A stretch of DNA of 64,000 nucleotides, taken from the NCBI GenBank assembly GCA_965368975.1, contig CBDUPA010000018.1, positions 1 to 64,000 on the forward strand, in the 5' to 3' direction. The position numbers were made by a program, and so were the translations under genes. Of the stretch, positions 28,067 through 49,809 are shown in pieces. The notes under the pieces were generated by a model. It had not been told where the DNA came from and ran no database searches. It saw nothing but the letters and a program-made list of their open reading frames with translations. Numbering within the stretch: position 1 is the stretch's first letter; each line of letters starts with the position of its first letter. This DNA comes from an uncultured bacterium. Lineage in GTDB: Bacteria; Acidobacteriota; Thermoanaerobaculia; Multivoradales; JAHZIX01.

Positions 28067-29383
28067 ATGCCCCTTCTCGAACAGCTTCGCCACACTCTTC
28101 ACTACCTGAGGCGTCGGCCCATGCACCGACACATGGTGCGCGAGCTGCGACGAGCACTGGGCCTGATCGTGGACATGGAAGCACTGGCCAGCAACATCCA
28201 TGCGCGCTTGCACGAGATGTTCGACCCGGACACGGTTCTGCTGCTCCACCTCGACCAGACTTCCGGACGCTACTTGCCCACGTACAACGGTAGATCGGCA
28301 ACCGACCCTGTACCGCAGGTACCTGCCGACGGGCACCTCAGCCGCTGGCTTCGGGTCAACGAGAGCTGCCTACTGCTGCCGCGAGACCGGGCCGTCTACG
28401 ACTACTTGCGACCCGCCGAGCAGCAGGTCCTCGACCGCTTCGGCATCCGCCTGTTGGCACCGCTGCTGGCCGCGAACCATCTCAGCGGCATGATCCTGCT
28501 GGGCTGGACGCGGCCGCGCTATCTCAACAGTCGCGATGCCGAGTTGCTGCAAGAGGTCGCTGAACCAGCCAGTCTGGCCCTCGAGAATGCGCTCCTCTAC
28601 CACGAGCAGCGCGAGCGGCTGGACCGCCTACACAAAGCCGAGCGACTGGCCGCGATCGGACAACTGGCAGCCGGAGTTGCGCACGAAGTTCGCAACCCGC
28701 TAGCCGCGATCCGCTCGACCATGCAGTACTTGGCACAGCGCCCCTCCGTATCTCGAAGGGCTCAGAGCTCCGAGGCGAGAGATGGAACCCCCGAGGAAGA
28801 GTGGCGCACCCTGGTCGGTGACTTGATCACCGAAGTGGACCGCATCGATGCCACGGTCAACGATCTGCTCGGCCTGGCACGCAGCGGCGACCTGCGTACA
28901 CAGCGGATCGATCCTCTGCTGCCACTGCAACAGGCGGTGCGCCTCCTCGCCGCCAAGGCGCGCAAGCAGAAAGTGCAGCTGGAGTCCAGTTTCGAACTCG
29001 GGTGCTTCGAGATCGAGGGCGACGGAGATCGCCTCAAGCAAGTCTTCCTCAATCTGTTGATCAATGCGCTCCAGGCAACCCCCGCTGGCGGCCGCATCCG
29101 TAGCTCCGCAGGAGCTTGGTCCACGACCACCAGCAGGGGGGCACGGCCGTGGGTCGAGATCTCGATCACTGACACCGGCAGCGGCATTTCTCAGGACCAG
29201 TTGGCACGAATCTTCGACCCGTTCTTCACCACCAAACGAGACGGCACCGGCCTGGGTCTGGCCGTCTGCCAGAGCATCGTCGAACGTCACGGCGGGCGCC
29301 TGCGCTTGCAGAGCCGCCCCAGGCAAGGCACCATTGCCCTGGTACGCCTACCGTGGGCAGCGACCGCCGCCGGAGAAACCTGA
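28067..29383 (+). CDS. Cytoplasmic GAF-like sensor histidine kinase
   Basis: ERLAAIGQLAAGVAHEVRNPL (H-box), QVFLNLLINA, DTGSGI, FDPFFTTK, GTGLGL. No TM segment. Confidence 0.92.
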   Translation: MPLLEQLRHTLHYLRRRPMHRHMVRELRRALGLIVDMEALASNIHARLHEMFDPDTVLLLHLDQTSGRYLPTYNGRSATDPVPQVPADGHLSRWLRVNESCLLLPRDRAVYDYLRPAEQQVLDRFGIRLLAPLLAANHLSGMILLGWTRPRYLNSRDAELLQEVAEPASLALENALLYHEQRERLDRLHKAERLAAIGQLAAGVAHEVRNPLAAIRSTMQYLAQRPSVSRRAQSSEARDGTPEEEWRTLVGDLITEVDRIDATVNDLLGLARSGDLRTQRIDPLLPLQQAVRLLAAKARKQKVQLESSFELGCFEIEGDGDRLKQVFLNLLINALQATPAGGRIRSSAGAWSTTTSRGARPWVEISITDTGSGISQDQLARIFDPFFTTKRDGTGLGLAVCQSIVERHGGRLRLQSRPRQGTIALVRLPWAATAAGET

Positions 29384-29385
29384 GT

Positions 29386-30783
29386 ATGGCCCGAATCCTG
29401 ATCACAGACGACGAGCGTCCGATCCGCCGAATCCTGAAGCTCCTTCTCAGCGAGCAGGGCCATAGCGTCGAGGAAGCCGAGAGCGGCGAGGCTTGCCTGG
29501 AGCTGACCCAGGAATTCCAACCCGATCTCGTCTTGCTCGACCTGCAGCTTCCGGGTATCGACGGCCTCGAAACGCTACAAGAACTGCGGGCAACGGATCC
29601 CGACATCGATATCCTGATGATCACTGCCTTTGGCAGCATCGCCTCCGCGGTCGAGGCCATGCGCCGCGGCGCTCGAGACTACCTCACCAAACCCTTCGAC
29701 AACGACGAGTTGTTGATGGTGGTCGAACGCACTCTCGAGGTGCGCGAGCTCAGCTCCGAAGTGGCACGGCTACGCGGCGACCTGGAATCGCGCTACGGGT
29801 TCAGCGAGATCATCGGTATCAGCCCCGCGTTGCAGGATGTCTTCCGCACCATGAGCAAGGTCGCCCGCGTCGACGCGACGGTCCTGGTAACCGGTGAGTC
29901 CGGAACCGGCAAGGAACTGGTGGCGCGGGCCATCCATCGCAAGAGTGGCCGCAGCCGCGGCCCATTCGTCGCCGTCAACTGTAGCGCCATCCCCCAGACC
30001 CTGGTCGAGAGCGAGTTCTTCGGACACGAACGCGGTGCCTTCACGGATGCACGCACGAGCAAGCCCGGCCGCTTCGAGCAGGCCGAAGGGGGCACCATCT
30101 TCCTCGACGAGATCGGCGACCTCGCCCTTGATGCCCAGGCCAAACTGCTGCGTGCCTTGCAAGAGCGCCAGATTCAGCGTGTCGGCGGACAGCAAACCCG
30201 TAGCATCGATGTCCGCGTGATCGCCGCAACCCATAGAAAGTTGGAGCAATCCGTGCGTCAGGGGCGTTTCCGAGAGGATCTGTTCTGGCGTCTCAACGTG
30301 GTGCAGGTGGTCCTGCCGGCCCTGCGTGAACGACGCCAGGACTTGCCGCTACTGATCGATCATTTCGTCGACCGCTTCAATCGCGAACTCGGCCTGTCGG
30401 TGACCGGCATCCAACCCGCTGCACGCCGCCTGCTGGTCGACTACGACTGGCCAGGCAATGTCCGAGAACTGGAGAACACTCTGTGCAGAGCCATGGTTCT
30501 GTGCGACGGCGAGACTCTCACTACTTCGGATTTTCCAGGTCGGGTGCGCGGCGAGCAGGAGGGTGTGTCGCCACCGGCTTCGGATCTCGAACAACTACCG
30601 CTCGCTGAAGCGGTCCAGCAGGCCACTGAGCGGTTGGAGAAAATGATGATCCTGGGCCGCCTCGCCGAACACCAGGGGAACCGCCGCAACACCGCGGCCA
30701 GTCTGGGAATCAGCCGCAAGACACTGTTCAACAAGATGCGTCAGTACGAGCTGGGCGACGACGACATCGAGCCCGCCGAGTGA
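29386..30783 (+). CDS. Sigma-54-dependent response regulator (NtrC family)
   Basis: Receiver domain, GESGTGKELVA, ESEFFGHERGAFTDA, FLDEIG, FREDL..RL, WPGNVRELEN, C-terminal HTH. Confidence 0.96.
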   Translation: MARILITDDERPIRRILKLLLSEQGHSVEEAESGEACLELTQEFQPDLVLLDLQLPGIDGLETLQELRATDPDIDILMITAFGSIASAVEAMRRGARDYLTKPFDNDELLMVVERTLEVRELSSEVARLRGDLESRYGFSEIIGISPALQDVFRTMSKVARVDATVLVTGESGTGKELVARAIHRKSGRSRGPFVAVNCSAIPQTLVESEFFGHERGAFTDARTSKPGRFEQAEGGTIFLDEIGDLALDAQAKLLRALQERQIQRVGGQQTRSIDVRVIAATHRKLEQSVRQGRFREDLFWRLNVVQVVLPALRERRQDLPLLIDHFVDRFNRELGLSVTGIQPAARRLLVDYDWPGNVRELENTLCRAMVLCDGETLTTSDFPGRVRGEQEGVSPPASDLEQLPLAEAVQQATERLEKMMILGRLAEHQGNRRNTAASLGISRKTLFNKMRQYELGDDDIEPAE

Positions 30784-30785
30784 GC

Positions 30786-31502
30786 CTAGAACAGCTCCTG
30801 CGTACTACCGCGCATGTATTCGAGATACAACACCTCGAGGTCGCGGTAGCGCAGTTCCTCGCGCGAACAGCTCAAAACCTTGCGCCCCTCGTTGAGAATT
30901 TCGGCTCGATCGGCCAGCTGTCGAGCCCGGAACAGGTCGTGGGTACAAAGCAAGATTGCCTTGCCAGCGTCGCGCAGACGACTCAGCGTATTGGCAATGT
31001 CGATGGCGGTTTTGGGGTCCAGGTCCGCCATTGGCTCGTCCAGGAGCAGGACCGGCGTCTGCTTGCTCATTACCACGGCCAGCCCCACCTTGCGCCGCAG
31101 GTTGGTCGGTAGCTCGCGTAGCCGGCGATCAAAGCTGCGCTCCGGGAGGCCGACTTCGCGCAGGATGCGCTCTGCATCTCTGGCATGCTGTCCGCCGAGC
31201 GCGGCGAAGAACTCCACGTTACGGCGCACGCTCAGCTCACCGTAGAACTCTGGTGAGTCGGCAAGATACGCTGCATGTCGCCGCACCTCCATGGGCTTCT
31301 CCGAGGCATCGAATCCACAGATCAAAGCCTTTCCGGCCGTCGGCCTCTGCAACCCCAGGAGCAGGTGTAGCGTCGTGGTCTTGCCGGAGCCATCTGCTCC
31401 CAACAAGCAGTGGATCTGCCCGGGCTCGATGCGCAGGTTGAGCGCATCCAGGGCCAAGGTGCCATCGCCATAGCGCTTACTCAAGTGCACCGCCTCGATC
31501 AT
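30786..31502 (-). CDS. ABC transporter ATP-binding subunit
   Basis: Walker A GADGSGKTT, Walker B LLLDEP, H-loop THD. Signature motif degenerate. Confidence 0.9.
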   Translation of the reverse strand: MIEAVHLSKRYGDGTLALDALNLRIEPGQIHCLLGADGSGKTTTLHLLLGLQRPTAGKALICGFDASEKPMEVRRHAAYLADSPEFYGELSVRRNVEFFAALGGQHARDAERILREVGLPERSFDRRLRELPTNLRRKVGLAVVMSKQTPVLLLDEPMADLDPKTAIDIANTLSRLRDAGKAILLCTHDLFRARQLADRAEILNEGRKVLSCSREELRYRDLEVLYLEYMRGSTQELF

Positions 31503-32995
31503 CGCAACTCCTCCTGGCGCGCGAAGCAAATCAACGTCGCAGCCACCACCACCAGCGTCTCGAGCACCAGCAGCAACAATCCGGGCACCGCGCTGCGCAA
31601 GGAGCTCCAAGCCGATACTGGCGGCATCCGAAAGACCGGACGGGACTCCAAGTCCACTGGCCGCTGCGATAGGTATTGCGGGAAGAACAGCAAGTGTGGG
31701 CTGTCCGGATCGCGCTGATCCTGCACTCTCATCCACCGTGCCAATGCCCTTCGGTAGTCCTGGACAGCGCGCAGGAAGCAGCGCTGGCGCTCGACTCCCG
31801 CACCGGTCAGCCGTTCGCCAACCATGCGTACCAATGCGGTCGGCGCCACGGCTGCCAGTTGGGCAGCGAGCTCTGCTTGTTGTAGGCGCTGCTCGTAAAC
31901 CCGCAGCCTCAGCTGCCGCTGTGACGCCGCGCGCCGATTGTGGACCGCGGCGGCAGCACGCTCGAGCTTGTAGTCGTCGAAGCGGCCGACCTCGCGACCT
32001 CTCCAGCCGCCGGGGTCCTCCTGCGTCTCCACCTGCTGTCGAATCCCTGCCAGCGCGTTGCTCAACTCGGTTTCGACCATCACTGGTGCTTGGCGCAGCG
32101 CGATCAGTGTAGCCGTGGCGGGTATACCTTGCACAGCCACCAGCCAGATCAGCGCCAGCACCGCCAGGCTGTGACTACCTTCGCGGCTCAGAGCTGACAC
32201 CAAGAGAGCCGCCCAGGTGGCGAGTGCCATGAGCCAGAAGCCCAAGAACATGAGGATCGCCAAGCGCCACAGATCCGCTGGCTGTGGCCACCAGCCAACC
32301 ACCAGCGCCAGCCCGAGACCGAGCATTGCACCGACAGAGAGACCACTACCGAGGACAGACCACAGAGCCAGGAAACGTCCGCCGAGTAGCGACCAGATCG
32401 ACAACGGGTACGAGCGCAGCAAGCGCAGACGCCCGCGCTGTTTCGGGTCGCACAGCGACTCATAGCTGAGCAGGAAGGCCACCAGCACTCCCACGGTCTG
32501 GAAGACATACATCCAGTCGAGGCTGATTCCAGCCGGTTGTGGCGGCTCTTCGACCCGTGCCGGGAGCTGCTCCAGGCTCGGACGTAACCAGGCGCTCAAG
32601 GCCAGCCAGGCAACGTTGGCCTCGTCAGCCACCCCCTCGTCGAGCGCGAAGGCCAGTTGCCAGGAAGGCTTGATCGCCGGGTGGAGCAAGCCGGCCGCGT
32701 CAGCGACGGTCGAACGAGAGAGCTGTTCTCGATAGGCTGTGTCGACCGCCGCCACCCCCTGCTCTTCGAGTTGTGCCTGGCGTGCACCGAGCCAAGACGT
32801 CGTGGTCATGGAGAGCACCAAGAACAATCCCAACACCGGAGTGCGCCGGTCGCGCCAGACATCCGAGAACTCCCGCCGGGCCAACACCAAGAAGATGCCA
32901 AACCTCGATTCCTCGACCAGCCTGGCACCTCCAGCCGGGCGAGCGACGCCGGCTGAACTGGCTTTCACGACTGGCTCGAGCTGGGCCTCGGACAT
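31499..32995 (-). CDS. ABC-2 type permease with large extracellular loops (DUF3526-like)
   Basis: ARREF N-terminus, LSYESL...G.LRLL.SYP, multiple TM segments. Coupled overlaps on both sides. Confidence 0.8.
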   Translation of the reverse strand: MSEAQLEPVVKASSAGVARPAGGARLVEESRFGIFLVLARREFSDVWRDRRTPVLGLFLVLSMTTTSWLGARQAQLEEQGVAAVDTAYREQLSRSTVADAAGLLHPAIKPSWQLAFALDEGVADEANVAWLALSAWLRPSLEQLPARVEEPPQPAGISLDWMYVFQTVGVLVAFLLSYESLCDPKQRGRLRLLRSYPLSIWSLLGGRFLALWSVLGSGLSVGAMLGLGLALVVGWWPQPADLWRLAILMFLGFWLMALATWAALLVSALSREGSHSLAVLALIWLVAVQGIPATATLIALRQAPVMVETELSNALAGIRQQVETQEDPGGWRGREVGRFDDYKLERAAAAVHNRRAASQRQLRLRVYEQRLQQAELAAQLAAVAPTALVRMVGERLTGAGVERQRCFLRAVQDYRRALARWMRVQDQRDPDSPHLLFFPQYLSQRPVDLESRPVFRMPPVSAWSSLRSAVPGLLLLVLETLVVVAATLICFARQEELR

Positions 32996-34596
32996 CACGG
33001 CTCCCGGGACAGTGGCGAGTTCACCAGAGAACGGCGGGCCGAAGCAGCCAGCAAGGCATGCAGGACCAGGAACCAAGCCAGCCAGGCCCCGGCCGCGGAC
33101 ACAGACTGGCTCAGCGACCATGCGGGGCGCTGAAAGCTCGGAAGATCTGCCACGTCCGGCCGCCGATGTCTGGTGGTTTCAAAGGCACGCTGTACAGCCA
33201 GTAGGCGCTGTCGAACTTCCGGCTCGCCGAGCCGATGAGTCAGCAAGTCGTAGTTGCTCTCATCGATCTCTTCTGGCTGCGTCCCGATGAGTGTCGGCCA
33301 GGGAGCCTCGGCCTGCAGGTCGTCCGTGAACCATCGCTTCGAATCAAACGCACCCTTCGAGTTCAAATGGGCGATCAAGGCTTCGCGGTAGTCGCGACAG
33401 GCCGCCAGAAACTCGTCCTGAGCCTGGTCGCCGGTACCGGCGAAGGTCTCGGATAGGTGGCCCGTCAGTGCTGCTGGCGACAGCAGCCACAGGCCTGTCC
33501 GCCACAATCGAGGGCCCCATGGGCCGTTGGGTTGCAACTGGCCCTCTCCAGCCATCCGGCCGGCATACGACAGCCCAATCCGGATCTCCTGTTGGTAGTA
33601 CTCGCGTAGGGCTTCGTAGTACTCGTGGCTCCCGGCACGGTACAGCACGCCGCGGTAGGGCCTCGTCTCCAGCAACGCGGCACTGAAACCCAACGGCCGC
33701 CGCAACAGCTCCTGCCGGCTCCAGACAGTCCGTAGTCGCAGGTCTCGCTCTGCCAACAGGGCTTGTTGCCTCGTGGCCTGACCGACACTCCACTGCCAGA
33801 TCCACTGGCGATCAGCGCTGGCGGCGATCGGCGGCAAGACCAACACCGCGGCGCACCAAAGCAGCGCTCCGAGCACCAACGCCGAAGATGGACGCTGCAA
33901 GCGGGTAGACAAGGCCAAACCAAGCCACAGCATGAGCGATAGGTAGACCAGATAGAGCCCGAACATCGCCGCCAAGCGCTGTAGCAACTCGCTGTCGGGA
34001 ACGACACCGGCACGCAGATAGAGCACGGACAGAGATGTTCCGGCACAGACCGACAAGGTGACGCTCAGGCAGACGCCGGCTGCCAGGTACTTACTCACCA
34101 GCAGGGTTCCAGGGCGAACCGGATTCGCCAGTACCATCGCCAGGGTCCCATCCTTGCGCTCACCGCTGACCGCGTCGAAGGTCATCAGCAGCGCCAGCAG
34201 GCCGAGAACCCCGATCACCACCGCCCCGAGATCGAAACCTTCGGACGCTGCTACCAGGGGATTGCCACGTTCGCCACCCACCGCTCGCCAGGGCACCTCG
34301 AAGAGGTGCACCTTGACCTCGTCTCCACGCCGGGCATCGATACCCCGATCCAGGACACTCAACGCTGCCGGCGGCCGCAACAGCGTCGGCTGGAGAAACG
34401 AATACACCGGCACTGCGGCGACTTCCTCTACCGCCCGCTGCTGCCGTTCGGCAAAGGACCGCTGGCGGCGCAGGTAGTCGTCAGACGCGATCAGTGTCGC
34501 CGAGATAACCAGTGAGACGGCCAGCAAGGAGCCCGCCAGGAAACGAAAGCTCGTCCCCTGCAGCCTGAGCTCTTTGATGATCACCGCTTTCAGCAC
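32995..34596 (-). CDS. ABC-2 type permease, second subunit
   Basis: IIKEL, FDAVSGERKDGTL..VLANP, SKYLA, TM helices. GTG start at 34596. Confidence 0.82.
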   Translation of the reverse strand: MLKAVIIKELRLQGTSFRFLAGSLLAVSLVISATLIASDDYLRRQRSFAERQQRAVEEVAAVPVYSFLQPTLLRPPAALSVLDRGIDARRGDEVKVHLFEVPWRAVGGERGNPLVAASEGFDLGAVVIGVLGLLALLMTFDAVSGERKDGTLAMVLANPVRPGTLLVSKYLAAGVCLSVTLSVCAGTSLSVLYLRAGVVPDSELLQRLAAMFGLYLVYLSLMLWLGLALSTRLQRPSSALVLGALLWCAAVLVLPPIAASADRQWIWQWSVGQATRQQALLAERDLRLRTVWSRQELLRRPLGFSAALLETRPYRGVLYRAGSHEYYEALREYYQQEIRIGLSYAGRMAGEGQLQPNGPWGPRLWRTGLWLLSPAALTGHLSETFAGTGDQAQDEFLAACRDYREALIAHLNSKGAFDSKRWFTDDLQAEAPWPTLIGTQPEEIDESNYDLLTHRLGEPEVRQRLLAVQRAFETTRHRRPDVADLPSFQRPAWSLSQSVSAAGAWLAWFLVLHALLAASARRSLVNSPLSREP

Positions 34597-34664
34597 GGAT
34601 TCTTCTCCTTGACCTTGCACCTGACGTGCGCCTGAAGTGGCCTCGCCATCCTCCCCTGGAATAA

Positions 34665-34680
34665 AGCACGTAGCGTGCCA
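34665..34680 (-). promoter_or_regulatory. Sigma-54 (-24/-12) promoter for the ABC operon
   Basis: Minus strand TGGCACGCTACGTGCT = GG-N10-GC. Confidence 0.75.
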
Positions 34681-34730
34681 CCTCTCGAGCAACCGTTGCG
34701 CAATCCTGGGACACGGGCCCTCCGAGGGAT

Positions 34731-34768
34731 GGGTAATCGCTTACTCGCCTCAGGGTAAGTACTTGCCC
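34731..34768. promoter_or_regulatory. Tandem palindromic activator sites (putative UAS of the NtrC-family regulator)
   Basis: GGGTAAtcgcTTACTC (34731-46) and GGGTAAgtacTTGCCC (34753-68), 22 bp apart, between divergent sigma-54 promoters. Confidence 0.7.
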
Positions 34769-34820
34769 CTGCCAGTGCCGGCAAACCTCCACCCCTTCCG
34801 ACAACGGCCTTCCAACAACC

Positions 34821-34836
34821 TGGCCCGAAGATTGCT
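34821..34836 (+). promoter_or_regulatory. Sigma-54 promoter for the radical SAM gene
   Basis: TGGCCCGAAGATTGCT = GG-N10-GC with TTGC at -12. Confidence 0.75.
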
Positions 34837-34912
34837 TCCCTACCTACGGACAATCCTATGACTTGTGAGTTCGCCACCAGGCGCCATTCCATCGACTGCA
34901 CGGAGGAATCTC

Positions 34913-36400
34913 ATGCTTCGGACCAGCAGCTATACGATCTTTGTCGACCTTCCCGAGCAACAAGACAAGCTCCTCGTTCAGGGTTACACCGGCGCTTACG
35001 ACCGGGTCTCGGCGCCGGTCGCCGACTACCTGCGTCGTCACAAGCCGCGCCCCACCAAGCCACTCTACGGCGAATGGACCGGTGAGACCGCAGATCGACC
35101 CGATTCCGAACGGCTACCGGAAGAACTTCTAGAGCAACTGCGCAGCAGAGGATATCTAACTGAGCTCGATCCTGACCAGGAGCAGCAGGTCTTCAGTGAT
35201 CTCGCCCGGCGCTTGCACGAGCGCGCTATCCGGCAGCCACCGAGCTACATCTTCATTCCGAGCTATGACTGCAATTTGCGCTGCGGTTACTGCTTCCAGG
35301 ACGCGATGCGCACGGACTGTAGCTTCAAGCACCTGCTGAGCACCATGAAACCGGCGATGGTCGACCGGATCTTCGACCGGCTCCCCGAGCTGGAAGCACG
35401 ACAGGGTTTCGAGGCAGGCCCCGGACACAGGCGCAGCATCGGCTTGTTCGGCGGCGAGCCCTTGCTGGCGCGCCACCGTGCGATCGTCGAACACATCCTG
35501 CAGCGCGGGCACGACTTGGGCGATGCCGACTACTGGGCCGTCACCAACGCCACCGAACTCGAAGCGTATGTAGACTTGCTGGGTCCGCTGGGGATCGCGC
35601 GGCTGCAGATCACACTGGACGGTCCGCCCGAACTTCACGACACCCGACGTGTCGACGCCCAGGGCGGCGGCACCTTCGAGCGCATCGCGCGCAACATCGA
35701 CCTCGCCTTGGAGCGAGACACCCAGGTCAGTGTGCGAGTCAACGTGGATCGAGACAACCTCCACGAACTCCGCGAACTAGCCGCCGAACTGCACCGTCGC
35801 GAGTGGTCGCTGAAGCCAAACTTCTCCGCTTACGTGGCACCGATCCGGCCGCAGGCCGGGACGCCGAAGGGCACGACCCTCGACACCTGGCAGCTCGACC
35901 GCGCCCTGTCCGAGCTACACGCCGAGGATCCGGCGACCCAGGTGTTGGAGCGGCCGGACGATGGGATGCGTTCGCGTATGCACAAGCTCTTCGCCGGGCA
36001 CCAGCCGATGCCTCAGTTGCGACCGAGCTTCTGCGGTGCCCACGACCAGATGTTCATCTTCGATGCCTTCGGTGACATCTACGCCTGCTGGGAGCGCACT
36101 GGCGACTCTCGTGTACGTATCGGACACGTTCCGGCCGAGGGTGACATCGAGATCAACCTACCGGTGCACCGAGAGTGGCGCAGCCGCAACGTCGCCAGCA
36201 ACTCCGTCTGTGGCAAGTGCCGCTTCGCTCTTCACTGCGGAGGTGGCTGCGCGATTCTGGCGCTCGAGCAGCGCGGCAAGTTCCACAGCAACTACTGCGA
36301 CGGTTTCGCGGCACGCTTCCGCACCTCGGTTGCCGAAGCCTACGCACAGTTCGCAGCGGGCACCGAAATCGAGAGCACACAGCGCGTGTGCACGCTTTGA
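34913..36400 (+). CDS. Radical SAM/SPASM peptide maturase with N-terminal RRE-like domain
   Basis: CNLRCGYC, FGGEPLL, TN, QITLDG. SPASM FCGA...GDIYAC...CGKC..ALHCGGGC...YC. GGAGG RBS before ATG 34913. Confidence 0.92.
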   Translation: MLRTSSYTIFVDLPEQQDKLLVQGYTGAYDRVSAPVADYLRRHKPRPTKPLYGEWTGETADRPDSERLPEELLEQLRSRGYLTELDPDQEQQVFSDLARRLHERAIRQPPSYIFIPSYDCNLRCGYCFQDAMRTDCSFKHLLSTMKPAMVDRIFDRLPELEARQGFEAGPGHRRSIGLFGGEPLLARHRAIVEHILQRGHDLGDADYWAVTNATELEAYVDLLGPLGIARLQITLDGPPELHDTRRVDAQGGGTFERIARNIDLALERDTQVSVRVNVDRDNLHELRELAAELHRREWSLKPNFSAYVAPIRPQAGTPKGTTLDTWQLDRALSELHAEDPATQVLERPDDGMRSRMHKLFAGHQPMPQLRPSFCGAHDQMFIFDAFGDIYACWERTGDSRVRIGHVPAEGDIEINLPVHREWRSRNVASNSVCGKCRFALHCGGGCAILALEQRGKFHSNYCDGFAARFRTSVAEAYAQFAAGTEIESTQRVCTL

Positions 36401-36506
36401 CAGCCGGCTCGACCGGCGCTTCGGCCCTCCGGACGTTCTGATAACCGAGGGCCTTCTACCTCGAGTCAATGCCAGCCTACTGGTAATCGAATGCAGGAGA
36501 AGCATC

Positions 36507-36701
36507 ATGAAAAAGAGACTGAGCAGCACCCCCTCCCCCTACCAACTGACCAGCTTCAACTCGGTCAACGCGCCAGCCGCTGATTCGGGCGACCTCGAAG
36601 CCTGGATGGAGGCGCAACTGGAGAGTGTCTTCGGTTTTGGTCCCGGCTCTCAACAGCGTCCGAGTTGCAACACCTTCACCTGCGTCGGCTATATGCCGTG
36701 A
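36507..36701 (+). CDS. Putative rSAM-modified RiPP precursor (64 aa, C-terminal SCNTFTCVGYMP)
   Basis: AGGAGA RBS. Lies directly after the rSAM gene, has a Cys-containing C-terminal core, and is followed by a strong hairpin. Confidence 0.75.
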   Translation: MKKRLSSTPSPYQLTSFNSVNAPAADSGDLEAWMEAQLESVFGFGPGSQQRPSCNTFTCVGYMP

Positions 36702-36757
36702 CGTCACCGGCTGCTCAACACATCTACGAGTAGCTCTCGCTCCTCGCGCTCTTTACT

Positions 36758-36794
36758 AGAGAGGCCGCTCGCGCTGCTAGCGAGCGGCCTCTCT
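36758..36794. terminator. Hairpin between convergent genes
   Basis: 15-bp stem agagaggccgctcgc / gcgagcggcctctct with a 7-nt loop. Confidence 0.7.
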
Positions 36795-36813
36795 CTCGTC
36801 TTGCGCGGCCTGT

Positions 36814-39273
36814 CTACAGCGAGCGTAGAACGATCATGGGATCGACGCGCAGAGCTCGGCGTGCAGGCAACCAGCTGGCCAGCAGAGCAACAACACCGAG
36901 CACGAGCAGTGAGACCAGCAGCGCCAGTGGCTCGAAGGCACCGACGCCGAAGAGCACGCGGCTGAGCAGTATCCCGACGCCGACCGCCCCGACCACGCCC
37001 AGCCCGGCACCGATCGAAGCCAGACGCACCCCCTGCCAGACCAGCAAGCGCACCACGTCCTGGACTCGGGCTCCCAGAGCCAGGCGGATACCAACCTCGC
37101 GCAGCCGCTGATGAACGCGGAAGGCAAGCAAGCCATACAACCCCACGGCCGCTAGCAGCGTCGCCAAACCTCCGAACGCGCTGAGCGCGATGGCACCGGC
37201 GCGGGCGGGCAGCAGAGTTGCGAGCAGGCTTGTTTCGAGCGGTTGTGCATCGAAGGGTACGAGCGCGGCATCGAGCTCCTGCACAGCCCGGCGAATCAAG
37301 GGGCTGAGATCGGCAGGACTGCCACCTGATGCCACGGTGTTGGCGGACCGCACCATGGCGGTCATGACCGGCGTGTAGCGCTGGCACAGCGGGAGGAAGA
37401 GATACGGTCGATGCTCCTCGTCCAGGCGCACATAGCGACTGTCTCGTGCAACACCGACCACTTCGAACGTCTCACCATCGCTCACCAAGCGTCTACCGAC
37501 CGCCGCACCGGACGGCCACAATCGGCGCGCTAGTGCCTGGTTGACGATAGCGACACGCGGCCCGTCCGCCCGGTCCGCAGCAGAGAACGCACGGCCGTTG
37601 ACCAGCGGCAGGTCCAATGTCTCGAAGAACCGGCCGGAGACAATGTTGTAGTCCACCATCAGGCCCCTCTCCCCCGCGCCAGCGTTGTCCTCGGCTCGGA
37701 CCTCGAGCTGCCGCCCGAAAGGATCGAGGGGGAGCGTCGTCGCCAGAGCGGCGGCAGCGATTCGGGGTTCGGTTTCCAGGGCATCAACAAGTCGGCGGAA
37801 CATCTCCTGCCCGTGCTGGGTACCGTAACCCTGCGTACTCAGATCGAGCGAGGCAACGGAAACCGCCCCCGGATCGAACCCCAGGTCGGCCTCGTTGGCC
37901 TGCTGCAAGCTACGCAGGAAGAGACCCGCCGCTGTCAGCAACACCAACGAGGCTCCGATCTGCAGCACAACAAGGCTGCTCAGCAATCGGGAACGACCGG
38001 TACCCTGCGCACCTTCCGGCTCCTTGATGGCTCGCACGAGCTGCGGCCGAGTCGCCTGCAGGGCAGGAACGAGGCCAAAGATCAAGCTGGTTCCGAGGGC
38101 CAACAGGGCGGCAAAGGCCAGAACCCGGGGTTCGAGGCGTAGGTCGAGCGACACCGGTAGGCCCGTGGCAGCACCGACGGCTTCGACCGCATGCTGCAGA
38201 TTCAGGGCAATCCAGACACCCACGACCGCTGCCAAGGCGGCCAGGACGAAGCTCTCGCTCCACAGCATTCGGATCAGACGCCAGCGGCCAGCTCCCAGGG
38301 CCAGGCGCACACCGATTTCCTGTTGACGTTGCAGGGCCCGAGCGATCAGCAGCGCCGCGACGTTGGCACAGGCGATCAACAACACGAGTCCGACCAACAC
38401 CTGTAGTGCACCGACGAACCAACCGGCGGTGCTGCGATACAGCGGATGCAGTCCACCCTCCCTCGCGGATAGCACTGAGATCGAAGTACCGCGGTTCGAC
38501 TGCGGAAAGAGTTCGGCCAAGCGTTGCGCCTGCCCATTGAGAGCTGCCTCGGCCTGCGCCGGCGTCGCACCGTCACGCAGTCGTCCGAGGACAAGCAGAG
38601 ATCGGCTGTCGCGGGCTTCGAGCAACCGCGACCCGGGTTGCAGTTGCCGCACGCTGGCAATCGGCATCCAGAGCTCGGGCGCATAGCCCGTGGTCGTCCC
38701 CGTGAACTCTGGCGGCATCACACCGACCACCACGACCGGCCTCCCGTTGAGCTGCAGTTTCTGCCCCAACACGCTCTGGCTACCGCCCAGCTGATCCTGC
38801 CAGAACTCGTGACTGATCACCGTCACTGCGGCCTCTGCTTCCCGTGCCTCGATGTCGAGCACACGGCCCAGTGCCGGTCCAGCTCCCAGTACCTGGAAGT
38901 AGTCCGGCGACACCAGCGAAGCGTAGATGCGCACGTCGCGCTCATCGCCTGCCAGGCCGAGGGGCACGATCTGCTCAGCGACCAACCCCTGCAGCACACC
39001 TCCCTCGGCACAACCCTCGCGCCGGAGATCTTCGAAGTCCGGGTAAGAGAGGGTGCCCCACTGCAAGCCATCGGCGTAGCTGGTGTAGACGCGCACCAGC
39101 CGTTCGGGCTGCTGCACCGGCAGTTGGCGGAAGAAAAGAGCCTCAGCCAGGCTGTAGACGGCGGTATTGACGCCGATGCCCAAACCCAGGCACAGGATCG
39201 CAGCTGTAGCGAAGCCTGGCCGGCGATGCATTTGACGCAGGGCTAGTTTGAGGTCGTTGAGGAGGTCTCGCAT
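36814..39273 (-). CDS. ADOP-family (duplicated MacB/FtsX-like) ABC permease
   Basis: DLKLALRQM.RRPGF...LGLGIGVNTA, LLIACANVA, EIGVRLALGAGR, second half REVGIRLALGA, PARRALRVDPM. Confidence 0.92.
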   Translation of the reverse strand: MRDLLNDLKLALRQMHRRPGFATAAILCLGLGIGVNTAVYSLAEALFFRQLPVQQPERLVRVYTSYADGLQWGTLSYPDFEDLRREGCAEGGVLQGLVAEQIVPLGLAGDERDVRIYASLVSPDYFQVLGAGPALGRVLDIEAREAEAAVTVISHEFWQDQLGGSQSVLGQKLQLNGRPVVVVGVMPPEFTGTTTGYAPELWMPIASVRQLQPGSRLLEARDSRSLLVLGRLRDGATPAQAEAALNGQAQRLAELFPQSNRGTSISVLSAREGGLHPLYRSTAGWFVGALQVLVGLVLLIACANVAALLIARALQRQQEIGVRLALGAGRWRLIRMLWSESFVLAALAAVVGVWIALNLQHAVEAVGAATGLPVSLDLRLEPRVLAFAALLALGTSLIFGLVPALQATRPQLVRAIKEPEGAQGTGRSRLLSSLVVLQIGASLVLLTAAGLFLRSLQQANEADLGFDPGAVSVASLDLSTQGYGTQHGQEMFRRLVDALETEPRIAAAALATTLPLDPFGRQLEVRAEDNAGAGERGLMVDYNIVSGRFFETLDLPLVNGRAFSAADRADGPRVAIVNQALARRLWPSGAAVGRRLVSDGETFEVVGVARDSRYVRLDEEHRPYLFLPLCQRYTPVMTAMVRSANTVASGGSPADLSPLIRRAVQELDAALVPFDAQPLETSLLATLLPARAGAIALSAFGGLATLLAAVGLYGLLAFRVHQRLREVGIRLALGARVQDVVRLLVWQGVRLASIGAGLGVVGAVGVGILLSRVLFGVGAFEPLALLVSLLVLGVVALLASWLPARRALRVDPMIVLRSL

Positions 39274-39349
39274 GCTAATCGTCCTTGTCTCGGTTGCTGG
39301 ATTCAAGCGGTGCGCAGCGCAGCGTACCCACCAGGTCGGACGATTCCAG

Positions 39350-39365
39350 TGCAAGAGTCGGTCCA
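39350..39365 (-). promoter_or_regulatory. Sigma-54 promoter for the ADOP permease
   Basis: Minus strand TGGACCGACTCTTGCA = GG-N10-GC. Confidence 0.6.
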
Positions 39366-39428
39366 GGTCGCCGGACGCCTCCGGGAGCAGAATTCCGGCG
39401 GATGACGATCGCATTCGGCCCGTCGATC

Positions 39429-39467
39429 GGGTCAAGCGTTACCCATTCACCGGGTAGGCCTCTACCC
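39429..39467. promoter_or_regulatory. Second tandem pair of palindromic activator sites
   Basis: GGGTCAagcgTTACCC (39429-44) and GGGTAGgcctCTACCC (39452-67). Same motif and similar spacing as at 34731. Confidence 0.7.
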
Positions 39468-39580
39468 GAAACTCAGGGCGAGCTGCCGGCTCGACGCTGA
39501 ACCGCGACACCGGTCTTCCTGCCTTAAGAACACTGTCAGAACGAGGCTATCGAAGCAGCGAGACAAGGCGATGCGGAAGT

Positions 39581-39596
39581 TGGCACACCGGTTGCA
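39581..39596 (+). promoter_or_regulatory. Sigma-54 promoter for the precursor/lipidation operon
   Basis: TGGCACACCGGTTGCA, near-consensus TGGCAC-N5-TTGCA. Confidence 0.88.
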
Positions 39597-39677
39597 GTAA
39601 GCGCAAGTATCGCGAGTCAAGGGCCCTGAAAGACGCGATAGAAGCACATCAAACCATCACGAACGAGGAGCAACAAA

Positions 39678-39911
39678 GTGGAAAAGCACGAGAACTTCGA
39701 AGAGATGAGCATCGTCGAGCTGGAAGACCGCCTGGAGCTGGGAAGCCGCTGCCTGTGTCGCAACGGCGACGGTGGCGACGGTGGTTCCGGTGATGGCAGT
39801 GACGGTGGCGACGGCGGCTCCGGCACTGGCGAGGTTCCGATCACCGTCGATGTGACTCCTTCGCTCCCGGGTGGCGAGGAACTCATCCCTGACGAGCTCA
39901 CCCCTCGCTGA
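39678..39911 (+). CDS. Putative RiPP precursor (77 aa): acidic leader IVELEDRLELG, core SRCLCRN, Gly/Asp-rich tail
   Basis: GAGGAG RBS and GTG start. First gene behind the sigma-54 promoter, followed by a hairpin and RRE-bearing enzymes. Confidence 0.8.
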   Translation: MEKHENFEEMSIVELEDRLELGSRCLCRNGDGGDGGSGDGSDGGDGGSGTGEVPITVDVTPSLPGGEELIPDELTPR

Positions 39912-39936
39912 GCGGGATAGCGCGTTAGCGCCAAAC

Positions 39937-39972
39937 GCGGGCGGCAGTGAGGTTCAAGCAACTGCCGCCCGC
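39937..39972 (+). terminator. Intra-operon hairpin after the precursor gene
   Basis: 12-bp stem gcgggcggcagt / actgccgcccgc, no U-tract. Confidence 0.6.
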
Positions 39973-40066
39973 TGGCCCATTCAGGGCCTCCTGCAGGGCA
40001 CATCAAACCCTTGCACGTCAAACCTTTGCAGACGAAACCGAGATCAACGCCCAAGGACGAAACGCT

Positions 40067-41395
40067 ATGGAAGCCGCATCCGTCACCGCTCCGTTGAGCC
40101 TCAAGCCCGGTGTTCGAACCTGGCCGCTCGACGTCAGTACCGGACAAAATCGCTACTTGGTCGAGACCGGGGAGCAGCGGCGCTTCGAGATCTCCTCAGG
40201 ATTGTACCAGATCATCGACCTGCTACGGCGGGACGGACAGGACGCCGAGACAGTGGCGTCCGAACTGCGTCAACGTGGTGTCTCCGGTGCTTCGAGTGCG
40301 AAGGTGCTGGAAGTGGCACGCTGCCAGCTCATCCCGCGCGGCATCCTCGAGCCCCTTCCCGGTGAAGAGACGGTCTCGGTAGCCGCTCCGGCGCCGCGGG
40401 CCAGCTATCTGCGCGTGCAGGTACCGTTGGTTTCTGCCGAGCGTCTGGCTCCGCTCACTTCGATGCTTTCGGTCTTGTTCCGACCTGCGCTGCTGGTCAC
40501 GTTGTTGCTGCTCAGCATCCTGGCGCATGCCTACTTCTACCTTGAGATCTTCCCAGCCTTCGACTGGTCCGCCACGACGCTGACCAGCGGCCAGTATCTG
40601 TGGGTTCTGCTGGCCCTCAACCTGACGATCTTCTTCCACGAACTCGGCCACGCCAGTGCCTGCCGGCACTTTGGTTGCGAGCACGGCAAGATCGGCTGGG
40701 GTATCTACATCTTCATGCCGGTGCTGTACACCGACGTTTCCGCAATCTGGCGTCTCAACCGCTACCAGCGCGCCCTGGTCGACTCCGCCGGCATGTACTT
40801 CGAGCTGATCGCCGCAATCGGCTTGATCGCTCTGCTCGCCGCGACCGGCAACCCGCTCTTCGTCCACATCTTCCTGTTTCTCGATCTGAGCATCTTCACA
40901 TCGCTGAATCCGATCCTGCGCCGCGATGGCTACTGGTTGCTGGCCGATCTTTCGGGACAACCGCACTTGCGCGCGGCGTCCCTGGAAGCCATGCGCGCGT
41001 TTACCGCCTTGCTCAAGGGCCAGCGAGCCGAGACGCCTCTGCTCAGCACCCTACCGCGCTGGCTGCGCCGCACGATGTATCTCTACTCCGCCTCGGCCGT
41101 CGCTTTCTCAGCCTACTTCCTGAAGTGGATGGTCGAGTTGGTGTTGGTCGATATCGGTCCTGCGCTGCCGGCTCAGGCTGCCGCCATCCTGGAAGCCGTG
41201 GGCACCCAGCCGGTCGCCTGGCTGGCCGCTGGCGACGCCCTGCTCCGGCTCGCCTTCAACCTCGTCTTCGGTGTCCTCATCCTGTCCGCCGCCTGGAGCT
41301 TCTTGCTCGGCTTCGGACGCTGGCTACGTGGCCTGCTCTCGCCGAGCCCACCGCCCACCGCTTCGTCGACGTCCTATCAGGGAGCCCTGCCATGA
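40067..41395 (+). CDS. M50-like intramembrane zinc metalloprotease with N-terminal RRE-like domain
   Basis: FFHELGH (HExxH) in a TM segment, YTDVS.IWRL, AGM.FE, LNP...DGYWLL. ATG at 40067. Confidence 0.85.
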   Translation: MEAASVTAPLSLKPGVRTWPLDVSTGQNRYLVETGEQRRFEISSGLYQIIDLLRRDGQDAETVASELRQRGVSGASSAKVLEVARCQLIPRGILEPLPGEETVSVAAPAPRASYLRVQVPLVSAERLAPLTSMLSVLFRPALLVTLLLLSILAHAYFYLEIFPAFDWSATTLTSGQYLWVLLALNLTIFFHELGHASACRHFGCEHGKIGWGIYIFMPVLYTDVSAIWRLNRYQRALVDSAGMYFELIAAIGLIALLAATGNPLFVHIFLFLDLSIFTSLNPILRRDGYWLLADLSGQPHLRAASLEAMRAFTALLKGQRAETPLLSTLPRWLRRTMYLYSASAVAFSAYFLKWMVELVLVDIGPALPAQAAAILEAVGTQPVAWLAAGDALLRLAFNLVFGVLILSAAWSFLLGFGRWLRGLLSPSPPPTASSTSYQGALP

Positions 41396-42645
41396 ACGCT
41401 CAGCCAACCCGAGCCCCCCGCTACGTACGCTCCCGGCATCTGCAGGTCGAGCATCAGCATGGAGATCAGCGCGTCTTGGTGCACGGTCTGCTGGGTCACC
41501 GGCTGCGCGTCAACTCGGCGACCCAGCGCTTCCTGGACGCCTTCGCGCAGCCGCGGCACCTGGAAGAGCTACTGCCCTCCGGTGCCGGTGCCCCGGAAGC
41601 CGTGCAGCGGTCCTTTGAACAGCTTTGCCGGGCCGGCTTCCTGGTCGACGAAACGCACCGCGAGACCTTGAGCGACAAGCAACTGCAACGGGTCACGCCT
41701 GGATTCTTCAATTGCCCCAGCCTGCCGCTGAGCCGTGCTACGGAGACAGATGCCGCGTTGCTCGGAGTGCCCTTCGACTACGGCAACCACAAAGAGCCCG
41801 GGGCTCGCTACGGCGCGGCTGCCCTGCGACGCTGGAGCTGCGACGGCTTGCACTACCTGCTCGACCCCCAAACGCAGCGGCCCCAGGGCTGGTACGACAA
41901 CGAATTCGATCGGCCACTGCTCGGCGGCGTCCGCCTGGGCGATCTCGGCAACCTGTTCGCGACACCGAACGAAGCACCCGAGCAAGTCTTCCACAAGCTC
42001 ACCGACTTGGTTCGCCAGCTGCTGAGCGACAACGTACTGCCCGTGGTGATCGGCGGTGATCATTCGATCACCTATGCCTGCGTACGCGCCTACGAGAAGC
42101 CGATCGCCGTGCTGCAGATCGACGCCCACTCCGACCTCGCTCCGTACCACGGCGGTGTCGCCAATCACCACGGGAATGTCATGTCCCGCATCCTGGCGCT
42201 GGACACCGTGTGCGGCCTGCACCAGGTCGGCCTGCGCGGAGTCACCAACGTAGCTCAGCTGTCACCGGGCAGGCGCGGTGTCGAGACTACTTTGTCGCCT
42301 CGCCAGGTGCGCCGGATCGGTCTGCAGGGTCTGCTAGAACGACTACCGGCTGACCTCGATTACTACGTCTCGCTCGACATTGACGCGATCGATCCGATCC
42401 ACGCTCCGGCTACGAGTACCCCGGTCCCAGGAGGATTCGACCCCATCGAGCTCAAGGAAATGCTCTGGGGCATCGCGCGTGAGCGCCGCTGTGTCGGTTT
42501 CGACCTGGTCGAGATCAACCCGCGCCGAGACGTCAACGACCTGACGCTGGCAGTGGCACAGGAGCTACTCCTTGCCTTCCTCGGCGGTCACTTCGACGAT
42601 CAGCAGCCGATCCCGGCGACGACCAGCAGCGAGAGCGTGTCATGA
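41392..42645 (+). CDS. Arginase/agmatinase-family ureohydrolase with N-terminal RRE-like domain (putative peptide arginase)
   Basis: GVPFD, GAR.G, DLGN, GGDHS, DAHSD, SLDIDAIDP, PGG, DLVEINP. ATGA overlaps at both ends. Confidence 0.88.
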   Translation: MNAQPTRAPRYVRSRHLQVEHQHGDQRVLVHGLLGHRLRVNSATQRFLDAFAQPRHLEELLPSGAGAPEAVQRSFEQLCRAGFLVDETHRETLSDKQLQRVTPGFFNCPSLPLSRATETDAALLGVPFDYGNHKEPGARYGAAALRRWSCDGLHYLLDPQTQRPQGWYDNEFDRPLLGGVRLGDLGNLFATPNEAPEQVFHKLTDLVRQLLSDNVLPVVIGGDHSITYACVRAYEKPIAVLQIDAHSDLAPYHGGVANHHGNVMSRILALDTVCGLHQVGLRGVTNVAQLSPGRRGVETTLSPRQVRRIGLQGLLERLPADLDYYVSLDIDAIDPIHAPATSTPVPGGFDPIELKEMLWGIARERRCVGFDLVEINPRRDVNDLTLAVAQELLLAFLGGHFDDQQPIPATTSSESVS

Positions 42646-43925
42646 CTCTCACCCGCCTGCTGCCGCTCGCCACCGCCACCGGTCGCAGTTTGATCGGGCT
42701 CGCCGTGCGTCGACAGTTGATCGCGTATGCGGCTCAGTTGCGAGGTTCGCATACCTTCGCACTCCTCAATCTCTTTCTGGCACTGCCCGAGCAGCGCGCC
42801 GGAAACCCCTGGCCCAAGGATCTGAGCCGGCTGGCCTGGCAGGTCTTGGCCTACCGCTCCCTCAACGACCTCGACTTCACGGCGCTGCGCTGGCAGCGCT
42901 TCGAAGTCGAAGGCCGTCGCTACCTGGAGTGGGCACAGCACCGAAGACGCGGCGTCATCCTGTGCAGCCAGCACCTTGGCGCCTATCGTCGTCTCACCTG
43001 GGAGCTGCTGCAACAAGGCGAGCGATTGCATGTGCTGGTCGATGCGCGTGTGGCGGCGGGATTCCGCCGCCAGCTGGCAGCGCAACTCGAGCGTCAGAAA
43101 GTACCACCGAGCCAGCGGGAAGAGCTGCTCAGCCGGCTGACCGTGCTCGACGCTGAAGCTCCCGGAAGCACGCGCCCCATCCTAGATGCCCTGCGCGCCG
43201 GCGGCCTCCTGCTCGTCTACCTCGACGGCAACACTGGCGCCACCGGCCCTGGCGCCAACGAGACACCCGTACGCAACGAACTCGCGCACACCAACAATGT
43301 CGAGGTCGACTTCTTCGGCCGCAGCATCACGGTGCGACGAGGCGTCTGCCAGCTTGCCCATGCTACTGGTGCGGCGCTGGTACCGCTGTTCGCTCAGTGG
43401 CGCGGCGGTACCAATCCAAGGCCGGCGATGGAATTCCATCCCCCCCTGCTCGTTCCCGAGGGGATGGACCGCGAAACCTTCTGCCGTCGCGGCATGCAGC
43501 ATCTCTTCCGGCTGTCGGAGGACCAGATACGCCGCCGACCTGCACAGTTCGAGCAGTGGCTCCACGCGCACCGCTGGTGGCTGAGGACCGCCTCTGCTGA
43601 TAGGGCCTCTGCTGATAGGGCCACCGCTGGAGGTCCCAGGTACCTCGCGCCGGATCATCCCTCCGAGAGGGCGGCGCTGCATCGCTTCCGCCTCGATCCC
43701 CGGCACGCCCTGCTCTTGAAGCTCGGCCGAGAGACCCTGCTGCTCGACGGCTACCGAGGCCACCTGGTTCGCGGCGGACAGTTGCTGTCTGCCACCGCCC
43801 GGGCACTGCGGCGGGCGCTGTCACCGCAAGAGCTGGTCCAGCGACTGTCCACGTATCCAGCTCCCCGCGTCCTGCAGACCTTCCAAGACCTGCAGCACCG
43901 GGGCCTCCTGCAATACGCCACCTAG
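42642..43925 (+). CDS. LpxL/LPLAT-type acyltransferase 1 with C-terminal RRE-like domain
   Basis: GVILCSQHLG, LVYLDGN, VDFFG, LA..TGAALVP, IRRRPAQF..W. Confidence 0.78.
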   Translation: MTLTRLLPLATATGRSLIGLAVRRQLIAYAAQLRGSHTFALLNLFLALPEQRAGNPWPKDLSRLAWQVLAYRSLNDLDFTALRWQRFEVEGRRYLEWAQHRRRGVILCSQHLGAYRRLTWELLQQGERLHVLVDARVAAGFRRQLAAQLERQKVPPSQREELLSRLTVLDAEAPGSTRPILDALRAGGLLLVYLDGNTGATGPGANETPVRNELAHTNNVEVDFFGRSITVRRGVCQLAHATGAALVPLFAQWRGGTNPRPAMEFHPPLLVPEGMDRETFCRRGMQHLFRLSEDQIRRRPAQFEQWLHAHRWWLRTASADRASADRATAGGPRYLAPDHPSERAALHRFRLDPRHALLLKLGRETLLLDGYRGHLVRGGQLLSATARALRRALSPQELVQRLSTYPAPRVLQTFQDLQHRGLLQYAT

Positions 43926-43934
43926 GGAGTGATC

Positions 43935-44690: not shown

Positions 44691-44708
44691 CCCACCGGAG
44701 GTAGCCTC

Positions 44709-45968: not shown

Positions 45969-45996
45969 ACCCAGCCATCTGTTCCAGGAGAGCACC

Positions 45997-49809
<3,813 letters not shown>

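Follow-up and report, generated by a model that had tools for sequence, protein, structure and literature searches.

The window analysed here, a stretch of 64,000 nucleotides (nt) from an uncultured bacterium of the Acidobacteriota (GenBank assembly GCA_965368975.1, contig CBDUPA010000018.1, positions 1 to 64,000; G+C 59-68%), encodes a radical SAM/SPASM peptide maturase followed on the same strand by a small Cys-containing peptide that is very probably its substrate. The enzyme gene is an open reading frame (ORF) of 495 amino acids (aa) at 34913..36400 (+), whose ATG lies 6 nt downstream of GGAGGA; this start is preferred to the GTG at 34865 because related enzymes open with identical first residues (MLRTSSYTI...). 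After a 106-nt gap, the peptide is encoded by a 64-aa ORF at 36507..36701 (+) that is preceded by AGGAGA and has a G+C fraction at third codon positions (GC3) of 0.72, as against 0.74-0.78 in neighbouring genes. Its leader contains an S-[LF]-N stretch and acidic/hydrophobic E..LE motifs, and its C-terminus (RPSCNTFTCVGYMP, that is ...QQRPSCNTFTCVGYMP, with the residues CNTFTCVGYMP) forms the core CNTF-T-CVGY-MP, in which C54, F57, C59, and Y62 are the residues of interest. Between the convergent precursor and permease genes lies a perfect hairpin (36758..36794, assigned to neither strand) with a 15-bp stem and a 7-nt loop. The 111 nt around it fold with -54.8 kcal/mol (z = -5.16, none of 200 shuffles being as good), and the hairpin is a probable two-way terminator; it has no T run, and an intrinsic terminator scan of 34000-42000 returned five terminator-like sites (4.4 expected), none of them at the hairpin. 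The first-pass annotation of this DNA, made from the letters alone, had described the same order of elements (a 64-aa peptide behind the enzyme, then a strong hairpin), and both are present as described.

The same annotation had seen in the enzyme a CxxxCxxC motif, a full SPASM Cys set, and an N-terminus similar to the recognition element (RRE) of enzymes that act on peptides made by ribosomes and modified after translation (RiPPs), and the domain analyses agree. Pfam Radical_SAM (PF04055) matches with 55.2 bits (cutoff 29.5) and NCBIfam SPASM (TIGR04085) with 48.1 bits (cutoff 27), which places the protein in the radical SAM superfamily and in its SPASM subfamily. The cluster motif of the radical SAM core is C120-x3-C124-x2-C127. 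SPASM proteins are recognized by a C-terminal seven-Cys motif (CX9-15GX4C ... CX2CX5CX3C ... C) together with the TIGR04085 domain, and the set is complete here (C374-x17-C392, C433-x2-C436-x5-C442-x3-C446, and C462). The cluster and SPASM Cys residues, as well as an additional C493, are all invariant in an alignment of 42 family members. In the AlphaFold2 model (predicted local distance difference test, pLDDT, 84.1; predicted template modelling score, pTM, 0.85), the region of residues ~1-105 begins with strands 8-12, 19-23, and 29-32, followed by helices 34-42, 70-79, and 87-105. RREs are winged-helix domains at the N-terminus, composed of three strands and three helices, which take up the leader as an additional strand; the same set of elements here suggests an RRE-like domain. 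The PqqD/RRE hidden Markov model (HMM) gave no match to the enzyme at E <= 0.01 in the Pfam search. C493 (window 36389-36391) lies three residues from the C-terminus, in a tail modelled at low confidence, and may serve as an eighth ligand to a cluster, or else in redox chemistry or hydrogen donation.

The proposal that the enzyme is a peptide maturase and the downstream ORF its precursor is supported by related loci. In six-frame translations, the window and each of four related genome loci (four of four) contain the pattern C..[FYW].C..[FYW] exactly once, while its background in the own genome is 79 occurrences in 14.25 million codons, or ~0.7 per 64 kb. These four loci, obtained by a pattern scan with one genome per species, all come from metagenome-assembled genomes of Acidobacteriota or Thermoanaerobaculia, and their enzymes are 59-60% identical to that of the window. 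The motifs (CGQFSCTGY, CNQFSCTMY, CTEFTCNVY twice, and CNTFTCVGY in the window) are always located on the strand of the enzyme, at the C-terminus of a small ORF, and a common leader is found in all five peptides. A metagenome scan added 79 loci to these; in 11, the enzyme is 48-59% identical. The enzyme is at least 46% identical in 18 loci (window, L001-L004, L009, L010, L012-L020, L022, and L023), of which 17 are counted, as L015 comes without flanking DNA. In all 17, a small ORF with a family-type leader is located near the enzyme gene, and in 16 it carries one to four C-x-x-[F/Y/H] units, the exception being L010 (five Cys, with only an atypical CCTH). Relatives of the enzyme thus do carry a similar neighbouring peptide, one of the two points on which the annotation had let its proposal stand or fall. 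Some of the precursors are divergent: that of L018 is a weak HMM match (E = 1) with mostly C-x-x-x-aromatic spacing, that of L020 was detected by the pattern and not by the HMM, and in L019 leader and core are in different frames. In the 11 peptides beside the closest enzymes, the third residue after Cys (+3) is F or Y for 29 of 31 Cys.

The own genome offers a second, internal comparison. Enzyme matches at E <= 1e-40 occur in three of 401 genomes of the phylum, and the own genome contains exactly two copies. The one outside the window, on contig 4, is accompanied by a peptide ending in CGVFTCSSFATCADFGCTTFEVG (four CxxF units), then by an HExxH protease and an ADOP-type permease. This locus (G000 contig 4, 317620-323110, equal to L009 5621-11108, minus strand) is compact, its enzyme is 51% identical, and no sigma-54 regulator or ABC-2 genes were detected in the 20 kb examined. 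When 119,434 six-frame ORFs of the own genome are searched with an HMM of the leader only, two are significant (E 9e-14 and 1e-6), one beside each enzyme copy, and the next best match has E = 1.3. As far as sequence comparison can tell, the ORF at 36507-36701 is in all likelihood the cognate precursor of the enzyme at 34913-36400.

A model of the complex, built from the 42-sequence enzyme alignment and a 16-sequence precursor alignment, is consistent with this pairing. Three runs scored 0.88, 0.87, and 0.88, while the best of three controls scored 0.00; the mark for this score is reached by 116 of 157 solved complexes and by 2 of 215 mismatched pairs. The runs share at least 63% of their contacts, with a partner pLDDT of 64. 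The most confident contacts connect residues 13-18 of the leader, where the family conserves S-[LF]-N (QLTSFN here), with enzyme residues 27-33, the third RRE strand. C54 and C59 are the only core residues in the confident interface, the enzyme side of which includes C374 (the first SPASM Cys), W393, and C493, so that the last lies within the interface that also holds both precursor Cys. The model supports a leader that binds to the RRE-like domain and a core that reaches the SPASM cluster site.

The precursor represents a much larger family. From 1.84 billion representatives, a profile built on 16 precursors retrieves 257 proteins (clusters) at E <= 1e-3 and 29 at E <= 1e-10. Besides the window's own, 149 sequences are listed, of which 147 are peptides of at most 110 aa and form the basis of the unit counts. 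P0122 (2231 aa, 24 repeats that each contain CNYFLCSSYC, E 1.8e-47) was set aside because its repeats probably imitate the core motif without relationship to it, as was P0127 (1200 aa), which likewise matches the profile through core-like repeats and was judged unrelated. At least one C..[FYWH] unit is present in 134 of the 147 listed peptides: 31 have one unit, 60 two, 17 three, 25 four, and one five, and the remaining 13 have none. Two-Cys peptides like that of the window number 34 among the 147. The CxxFxCxxY motif described in the first-pass annotation is present in the window, but as a fixed pattern of the family it does not hold; the unit is C-x-x-aromatic, repeated one to five times.

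The constraint on this unit is concentrated in a single position. Over 545 core Cys, +3 carries 1.32 bits of information relative to the core background, and every other position at most 0.43. Its most frequent residues (n = 536) are F 218, Y 75, N 63, L 45, and D 22, with Asn or Asp at +3 in 15 of the 147 listed peptides. Among the precursor subfamilies (P0164, P0212, P0199, and others), one has repeated CGTN or CGTD replacing CxxF, and another has CPxL units followed by Pro-rich tails; therefore, the +3 residue defines subfamilies. In the relative L014, one CGIY unit supplies the only Cys, and a disulfide thus cannot be the general product of the family.

The annotation had not recognized the precursor family, and neither do the curated collections: the peptide and its relatives have no NCBIfam match even at E = 10, the peptide has none in Pfam, and none of the 147 listed relatives reaches an NCBIfam cutoff. 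A word-based homologue search with the 64-aa peptide returned only the peptide itself, although the profile search later showed a large family, and an ESM Atlas search with it gave no usable match. The enzyme subfamily, the precursor family, the four-residue unit, and the gene set are absent from NCBIfam release 20 and from Pfam as searched. Judged by its sequence relatives, the pair belongs to a large, uncurated family centred on soil Acidobacteriota. In the literature listings searched, no paper was found on the enzyme subfamily or on a CxxF/CxxY radical SAM substrate; PMC13692751 concerns an archaeal protein-thioether system that is unrelated. The overall kind of system, a radical SAM/SPASM maturase with an RRE and a Cys-containing precursor, is already well known.

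The relatives of the enzyme indicate which chemistry is nearest. Among 8000 candidates scored, 1034 homologues were found at E <= 1e-30, the best 120 being 54-62% identical; none of these has a more specific name at its source than "radical SAM protein", "SPASM domain-containing protein", or "uncharacterized protein". The enzyme has 54 NCBIfam matches, every one under its curated cutoff. The best is CefB, "Cys-every-fifth" (NF038107, 123.6 bits, cutoff 600), followed by TIGR04463 (102.1, cutoff 525), PapB (NF047865; 101.5, cutoff 340), the geopeptide maturase (90.2, cutoff 400), DynA (78.9, cutoff 450), and QhpD (69.5, cutoff 453). Lower-scoring matches include the SCIFF maturase (TIGR03974; 56.6, cutoff 425), YhhB (52.9, cutoff 445), and FxsB (38.7, cutoff 370). 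These scores place the enzyme outside the CefB, PapB, and SCIFF families as well as outside the triceptide families of YhhB and FxsB. Among the top matches, PapB and QhpD are thioether formers, while the names of CefB and TIGR04463 refer to Cys-rich targets. Among solved structures, the thioether synthase CteB matches best (profile E 9.6e-23, fold E 2.8e-17), and AnSME, TigE, SuiB, and ChlB come next.

The most probable product, with a probability of roughly 0.55, is one thioether per unit between Cys(i) and residue i+3, hence two small rings in the window's peptide. This reading is preferred because +3 is the sole strongly constrained neighbour of Cys, in a unit that stands alone or in up to five repeats, because Asn or Asp occupies +3 in part of the family, and because the nearest characterised enzymes form thioethers. 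Asn and Asp are acceptors of known ranthipeptides. With leader residues 13-18 paired with the third RRE strand, the core would lie at the SPASM cluster site, where the 5'-deoxyadenosyl radical would take a hydrogen from the +3 residue of each C-x-x-aromatic unit; in Phe57 and Tyr62, this hydrogen would come off the benzylic beta-carbon or else the alpha-carbon. The radical would then be captured by the sulfur of the Cys, positioned at the first auxiliary cluster, and the product would contain the four-residue thioether rings Cys54-Phe57 and Cys59-Tyr62, with a mass change of -4 Da. By definition, a thioether from the Cys sulfur to an alpha-carbon is of the sacti class and one to a beta- or gamma-carbon of the ranthi class. 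By atom count, the ring has 12 members with the alpha-carbon link and 13 with the beta-carbon link; the latter would equal the common i/i+3 lanthionine ring in size. That Phe, Tyr, and His are preferred would agree with removal of a hydrogen from a benzylic-type beta-carbon, but a link to the alpha-carbon (sactionine) is equally possible.

Several observations weigh against Cys-to-i+3 thioethers. Both the type of the bond and the carbon that it engages are deduced by indirect reasoning, and the enzyme scores far under every curated family cutoff. The aromatic preference at +3 (293 of 536) could instead mean ring chemistry, and Leu, with 45 cases at +3, does not belong to the classical thioether acceptors. 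C493 might fill the last position of the first auxiliary cluster, which would leave no open site for a substrate thiolate. As leader-bound CteB and SuiB are among the solved structures (5wgg, 5v1t), the pass of the complex model may reflect this likeness alone. The active site may also differ: at six positions that PMC10288494 defines on CteB (F, F, T, S, H, and Q), a profile alignment gives F128, F179, V210, T234, W393, and E394 for the enzyme, so that two of the six (F128 and F179) are identical and one or two more similar in this comparison, made against CteB alone.

If the aromatic preference does mean ring chemistry, the product might be a cyclophane or another aryl cross-link, with the ring of Phe57 or Tyr62 joined to the Cys three places before, either at its sulfur or at a carbon, resembling the carbon-carbon links of the SuiB, DarE, or triceptide enzymes. 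The first-pass annotation had left the choice between Cys-based cross-links and Phe/Tyr cyclophanes; of the two, Cys thioethers are favoured here and cyclophanes less so. Aromatics dominate +3 (F 218 and Y 75 of 536), and the cyclophane formers DynA, YhhB, and FxsB are among the NCBIfam matches, as is SuiB among the fold matches, but thioether formers outscore them. Homologous precursors can have Asn, Asp, or Leu at +3, residues without a ring, which favours thioethers over cyclophanes. Nor is the aromatic-X-X unit present that marks the triceptides, three-residue cyclophanes with a conserved third residue that enzymes of the YhhB, FxsB, or XyeB families make, as the position two residues behind each aromatic varies (C, T, C, and V in the own-genome paralogue). 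A cyclophane product is thus considered improbable.

Several genes around the pair point to regulation, export, and leader removal. A sensor histidine kinase (28067..29383, +; Pfam HATPase_c, HisKA, and GAF, in the order GAF-HisKA-HATPase; AtoS/ZraS-like NCBIfam matches under cutoff) is the probable partner of the adjacent sigma-54-dependent response regulator of the NtrC type (29353..30783, +; Pfam Sigma54_activat 242 bits, Response_reg, and HTH_8), the true start of which is likely the Met near 29386. The regulator gene is found in the same place in L001, L003, L004, and L012. It is followed by three genes transcribed divergently from the enzyme gene. The first encodes an ABC transporter ATPase (30786..31736, -; Pfam ABC_tran; NCBIfam drrA-like 141.6 bits, under cutoff) that is conserved in L001 and whose ABC domain starts near residue 79 of the ORF. 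The others encode an ABC-2 type permease with DUF3526 (31499..33121, -; Pfam ABC2_membrane_2 and DUF3526) and a second ABC-2 type permease (32995..34692, -; Pfam ABC2_membrane_2 60.2 bits), which likely starts near 34596, by comparison with L001 and L003. This paralogous permease pair is conserved in L001, L003, L004, and L012, where local HMM matches of the second permease range from E 1e-189 to 1e-295.

Downstream of the precursor, an ADOP-family duplicated FtsX/MacB-type permease, a probable exporter, is encoded at 36814..39435 (-; NCBIfam TIGR03434 760.8 bits, cutoff 622.3), and an ADOP-type gene adjoins the enzyme gene in L001, L002, L009, L010, L012, L016, and L022. Further on, an HExxH intramembrane metalloprotease, the probable leader peptidase, is encoded at 39947..41395 (+; daptide_HExxH 113.9 bits, cutoff 300; YydH/LiaK 53.8 bits, cutoff 225; under both cutoffs). 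Such a protease is located near the enzyme gene in nine loci (window, L001, L002, L009, L010, L011, L017, L019, and L022). In the proposed pathway, this protease (39947-41395) would cleave off the leader, the ADOP permease and the ABC components would serve in product export or immunity, and the adjacent histidine kinase and sigma-54 regulator would switch on the divergent operons. Two of the related loci have additional genes. L010 11640-13772 (relative G124) contains two precursor genes and then a 710-aa ORF, with no family assigned, before the HExxH protease. In L003 (8061-13213), the system directly precedes three tandem ~50-aa peptide genes with Ser/Cys-rich cores, followed in turn by genes for a lanthionine synthetase of class III/IV (622 bits with NF038151, which exceeds the cutoff) and an ABC exporter.

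The sigma-54-type promoter pattern TGGCACN5TTGCW has five matches with at most one mismatch in the 64 kb, three of them in the cluster. One faces the ABC operon (34665..34680, -, one mismatch), another lies 92 nt before the enzyme ATG (34821..34836, +, one mismatch), and the third, the only match in the window without mismatch, lies 97 nt before a gene for a 77-aa peptide (39581..39596, +). L003, L004, and L012, unlike L001, have an equivalent match 65-78 nt upstream of their enzyme gene. A sigma-70 promoter scan of 34000-42000 returned no promoters. Between the divergent promoters, a repeat search found only a 16-nt near-palindrome at 34753-34768 (GGGTAAGTACTTGCCC), about midway, which may be a binding site for the response regulator.

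The 77-aa peptide (39678..39911, +) is Gly/Asp-rich, has no family match, and opens what looks like a peptide-lipidation operon (39581-49809). Behind it, a row of genes on the same strand encodes the HExxH protease, an arginase/agmatinase-like protein extended by ~110 aa at its N-terminus, two LpxL-like acyltransferases, a 253-aa protein without assigned family, and a FAAL-ACAD-ACP fusion. The enzyme might act on the 77-aa peptide as well as, or instead of, its own neighbour, and a two-component or lipidated product might result; this would be compatible with thioether rings in the 64-aa peptide. Sigma-54-type matches precede both operons, the one before 39678 being perfect, and the family-typical HExxH protease directly follows the 77-aa peptide, in the same row as the lipidation genes. 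The common type of regulator and the family-typical protease speak for a single gene cluster, and a SIVELEDRLEL stretch of the 77-aa peptide resembles the E-LE-RLE leader motif of the family. The leader HMM, however, gives it no match up to E 33 (true precursors 1e-6 and 9e-14), the whole-peptide HMM gives only E 5.9, and its CLC has no C-x-x-aromatic unit. Membership of the 77-aa peptide in the precursor family is unsupported by these searches (leader HMM E > 33). Neither an arginase-like nor an LpxL-like gene was found at any related locus, within the flanking DNA examined, and the arginase-like protein is found at E <= 1e-50 in one of 401 genomes, the own one (none of the 400 other genomes of the phylum has an orthologue). 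Of the link to this operon and its peptide drawn in the first-pass annotation, the promoters and the protease speak for it, while the leader HMM and the lack of arginase- and LpxL-like genes in relatives speak against it; action of the enzyme on the 77-aa peptide seems unlikely.

That the enzyme makes a mass-neutral change, or one that does not engage Cys, such as a YydG/EpeE-type epimerisation, with the Cys left for disulfides or metal binding, is the least probable of the alternatives: YydG/EpeE clusters share the HExxH membrane protease, which here also matches the YydH/LiaK epipeptide protease model (53.8 bits), and an ABC transporter adjoins the system, as it does epipeptide loci, but no epimerase family is among the 25 best of the 54 NCBIfam matches, disulfides would hardly account for the tight coupling of Cys and +3 or for the relative with a single Cys unit, and the complex model places both Cys, rather than other residues, at the cluster site.

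Radical SAM/SPASM maturases are a main source of new peptide cross-links. In the present family, a simple repeated unit predicts the ring pattern in a well-delimited set of peptides, yet no curated model or paper was found, and most members come from little-studied or uncultured Acidobacteriota. The core in the window, with two units in 11 residues, is about the smallest substrate for establishing the chemistry, and the residues that occur naturally at +3 (F, Y, H, N, D, and L) provide a ready-made substrate-scope series. A bolder proposal, possible but doubtful, is that the window holds the founding example of a RiPP class of at least 257 precursor clusters, in which a Cys thioether is formed onto the benzylic beta-carbon of Phe, Tyr, or His in each four-residue unit and the bicyclic core is lipidated by the adjoining sigma-54-controlled operon (arginase-like, two LpxL-like, and FAAL-ACAD-ACP). 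No description of a Cys-to-benzylic-beta-carbon thioether was found in the literature for any RiPP. A link to the benzylic carbon would, if true, be a new type of thioether, and action of the neighbouring operon on the product would, if true, make it a new lipidated RiPP.

The system shares individual features with several known ones. Epipeptide (YydF/YydG/YydH) and daptide clusters likewise have an HExxH intramembrane protease adjoining the precursor, but the modifying enzyme here is a SPASM maturase nearest to thioether formers, and no daptide tailoring genes were seen. With CefB and TIGR04463 the window core has in common a Cys spacing of five, while the precursors of the window and its relatives match no curated precursor model; no literature on the chemistry of CefB was found. 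The CteB/SCIFF ranthipeptide enzymes (thermocellin; PDB IDs: 5wgg and 5why) also have a full SPASM domain, together with an N-terminal RRE to which the RRE-like domain modelled here would correspond, and their precursor core is Cys-rich and C-terminal, as here; in the present complex model, the leader is likewise predicted to dock on the RRE-like domain. Unlike SCIFF peptides, however, the window precursor matches no SCIFF family, its unit is C-x-x-aromatic, and it is accompanied by an HExxH membrane protease and an ADOP permease. Triceptide enzymes (YhhB and FxsB) are SPASM maturases that act on repeated short units with an aromatic residue, but here the aromatic has its conserved partner three places earlier, in a Cys, and not two places later. 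PapB, whose ranthipeptide product freyrasin has repeated C-X3-D units, resembles the present enzyme in using a short Cys unit in several repeats, each presumably its own small ring. The window core contains no Asp or Glu, and PapB-type C-X3-D/E units are thus absent; the spacing here is i+3 rather than i+4, and the acceptor is mainly Phe or Tyr rather than Asp.

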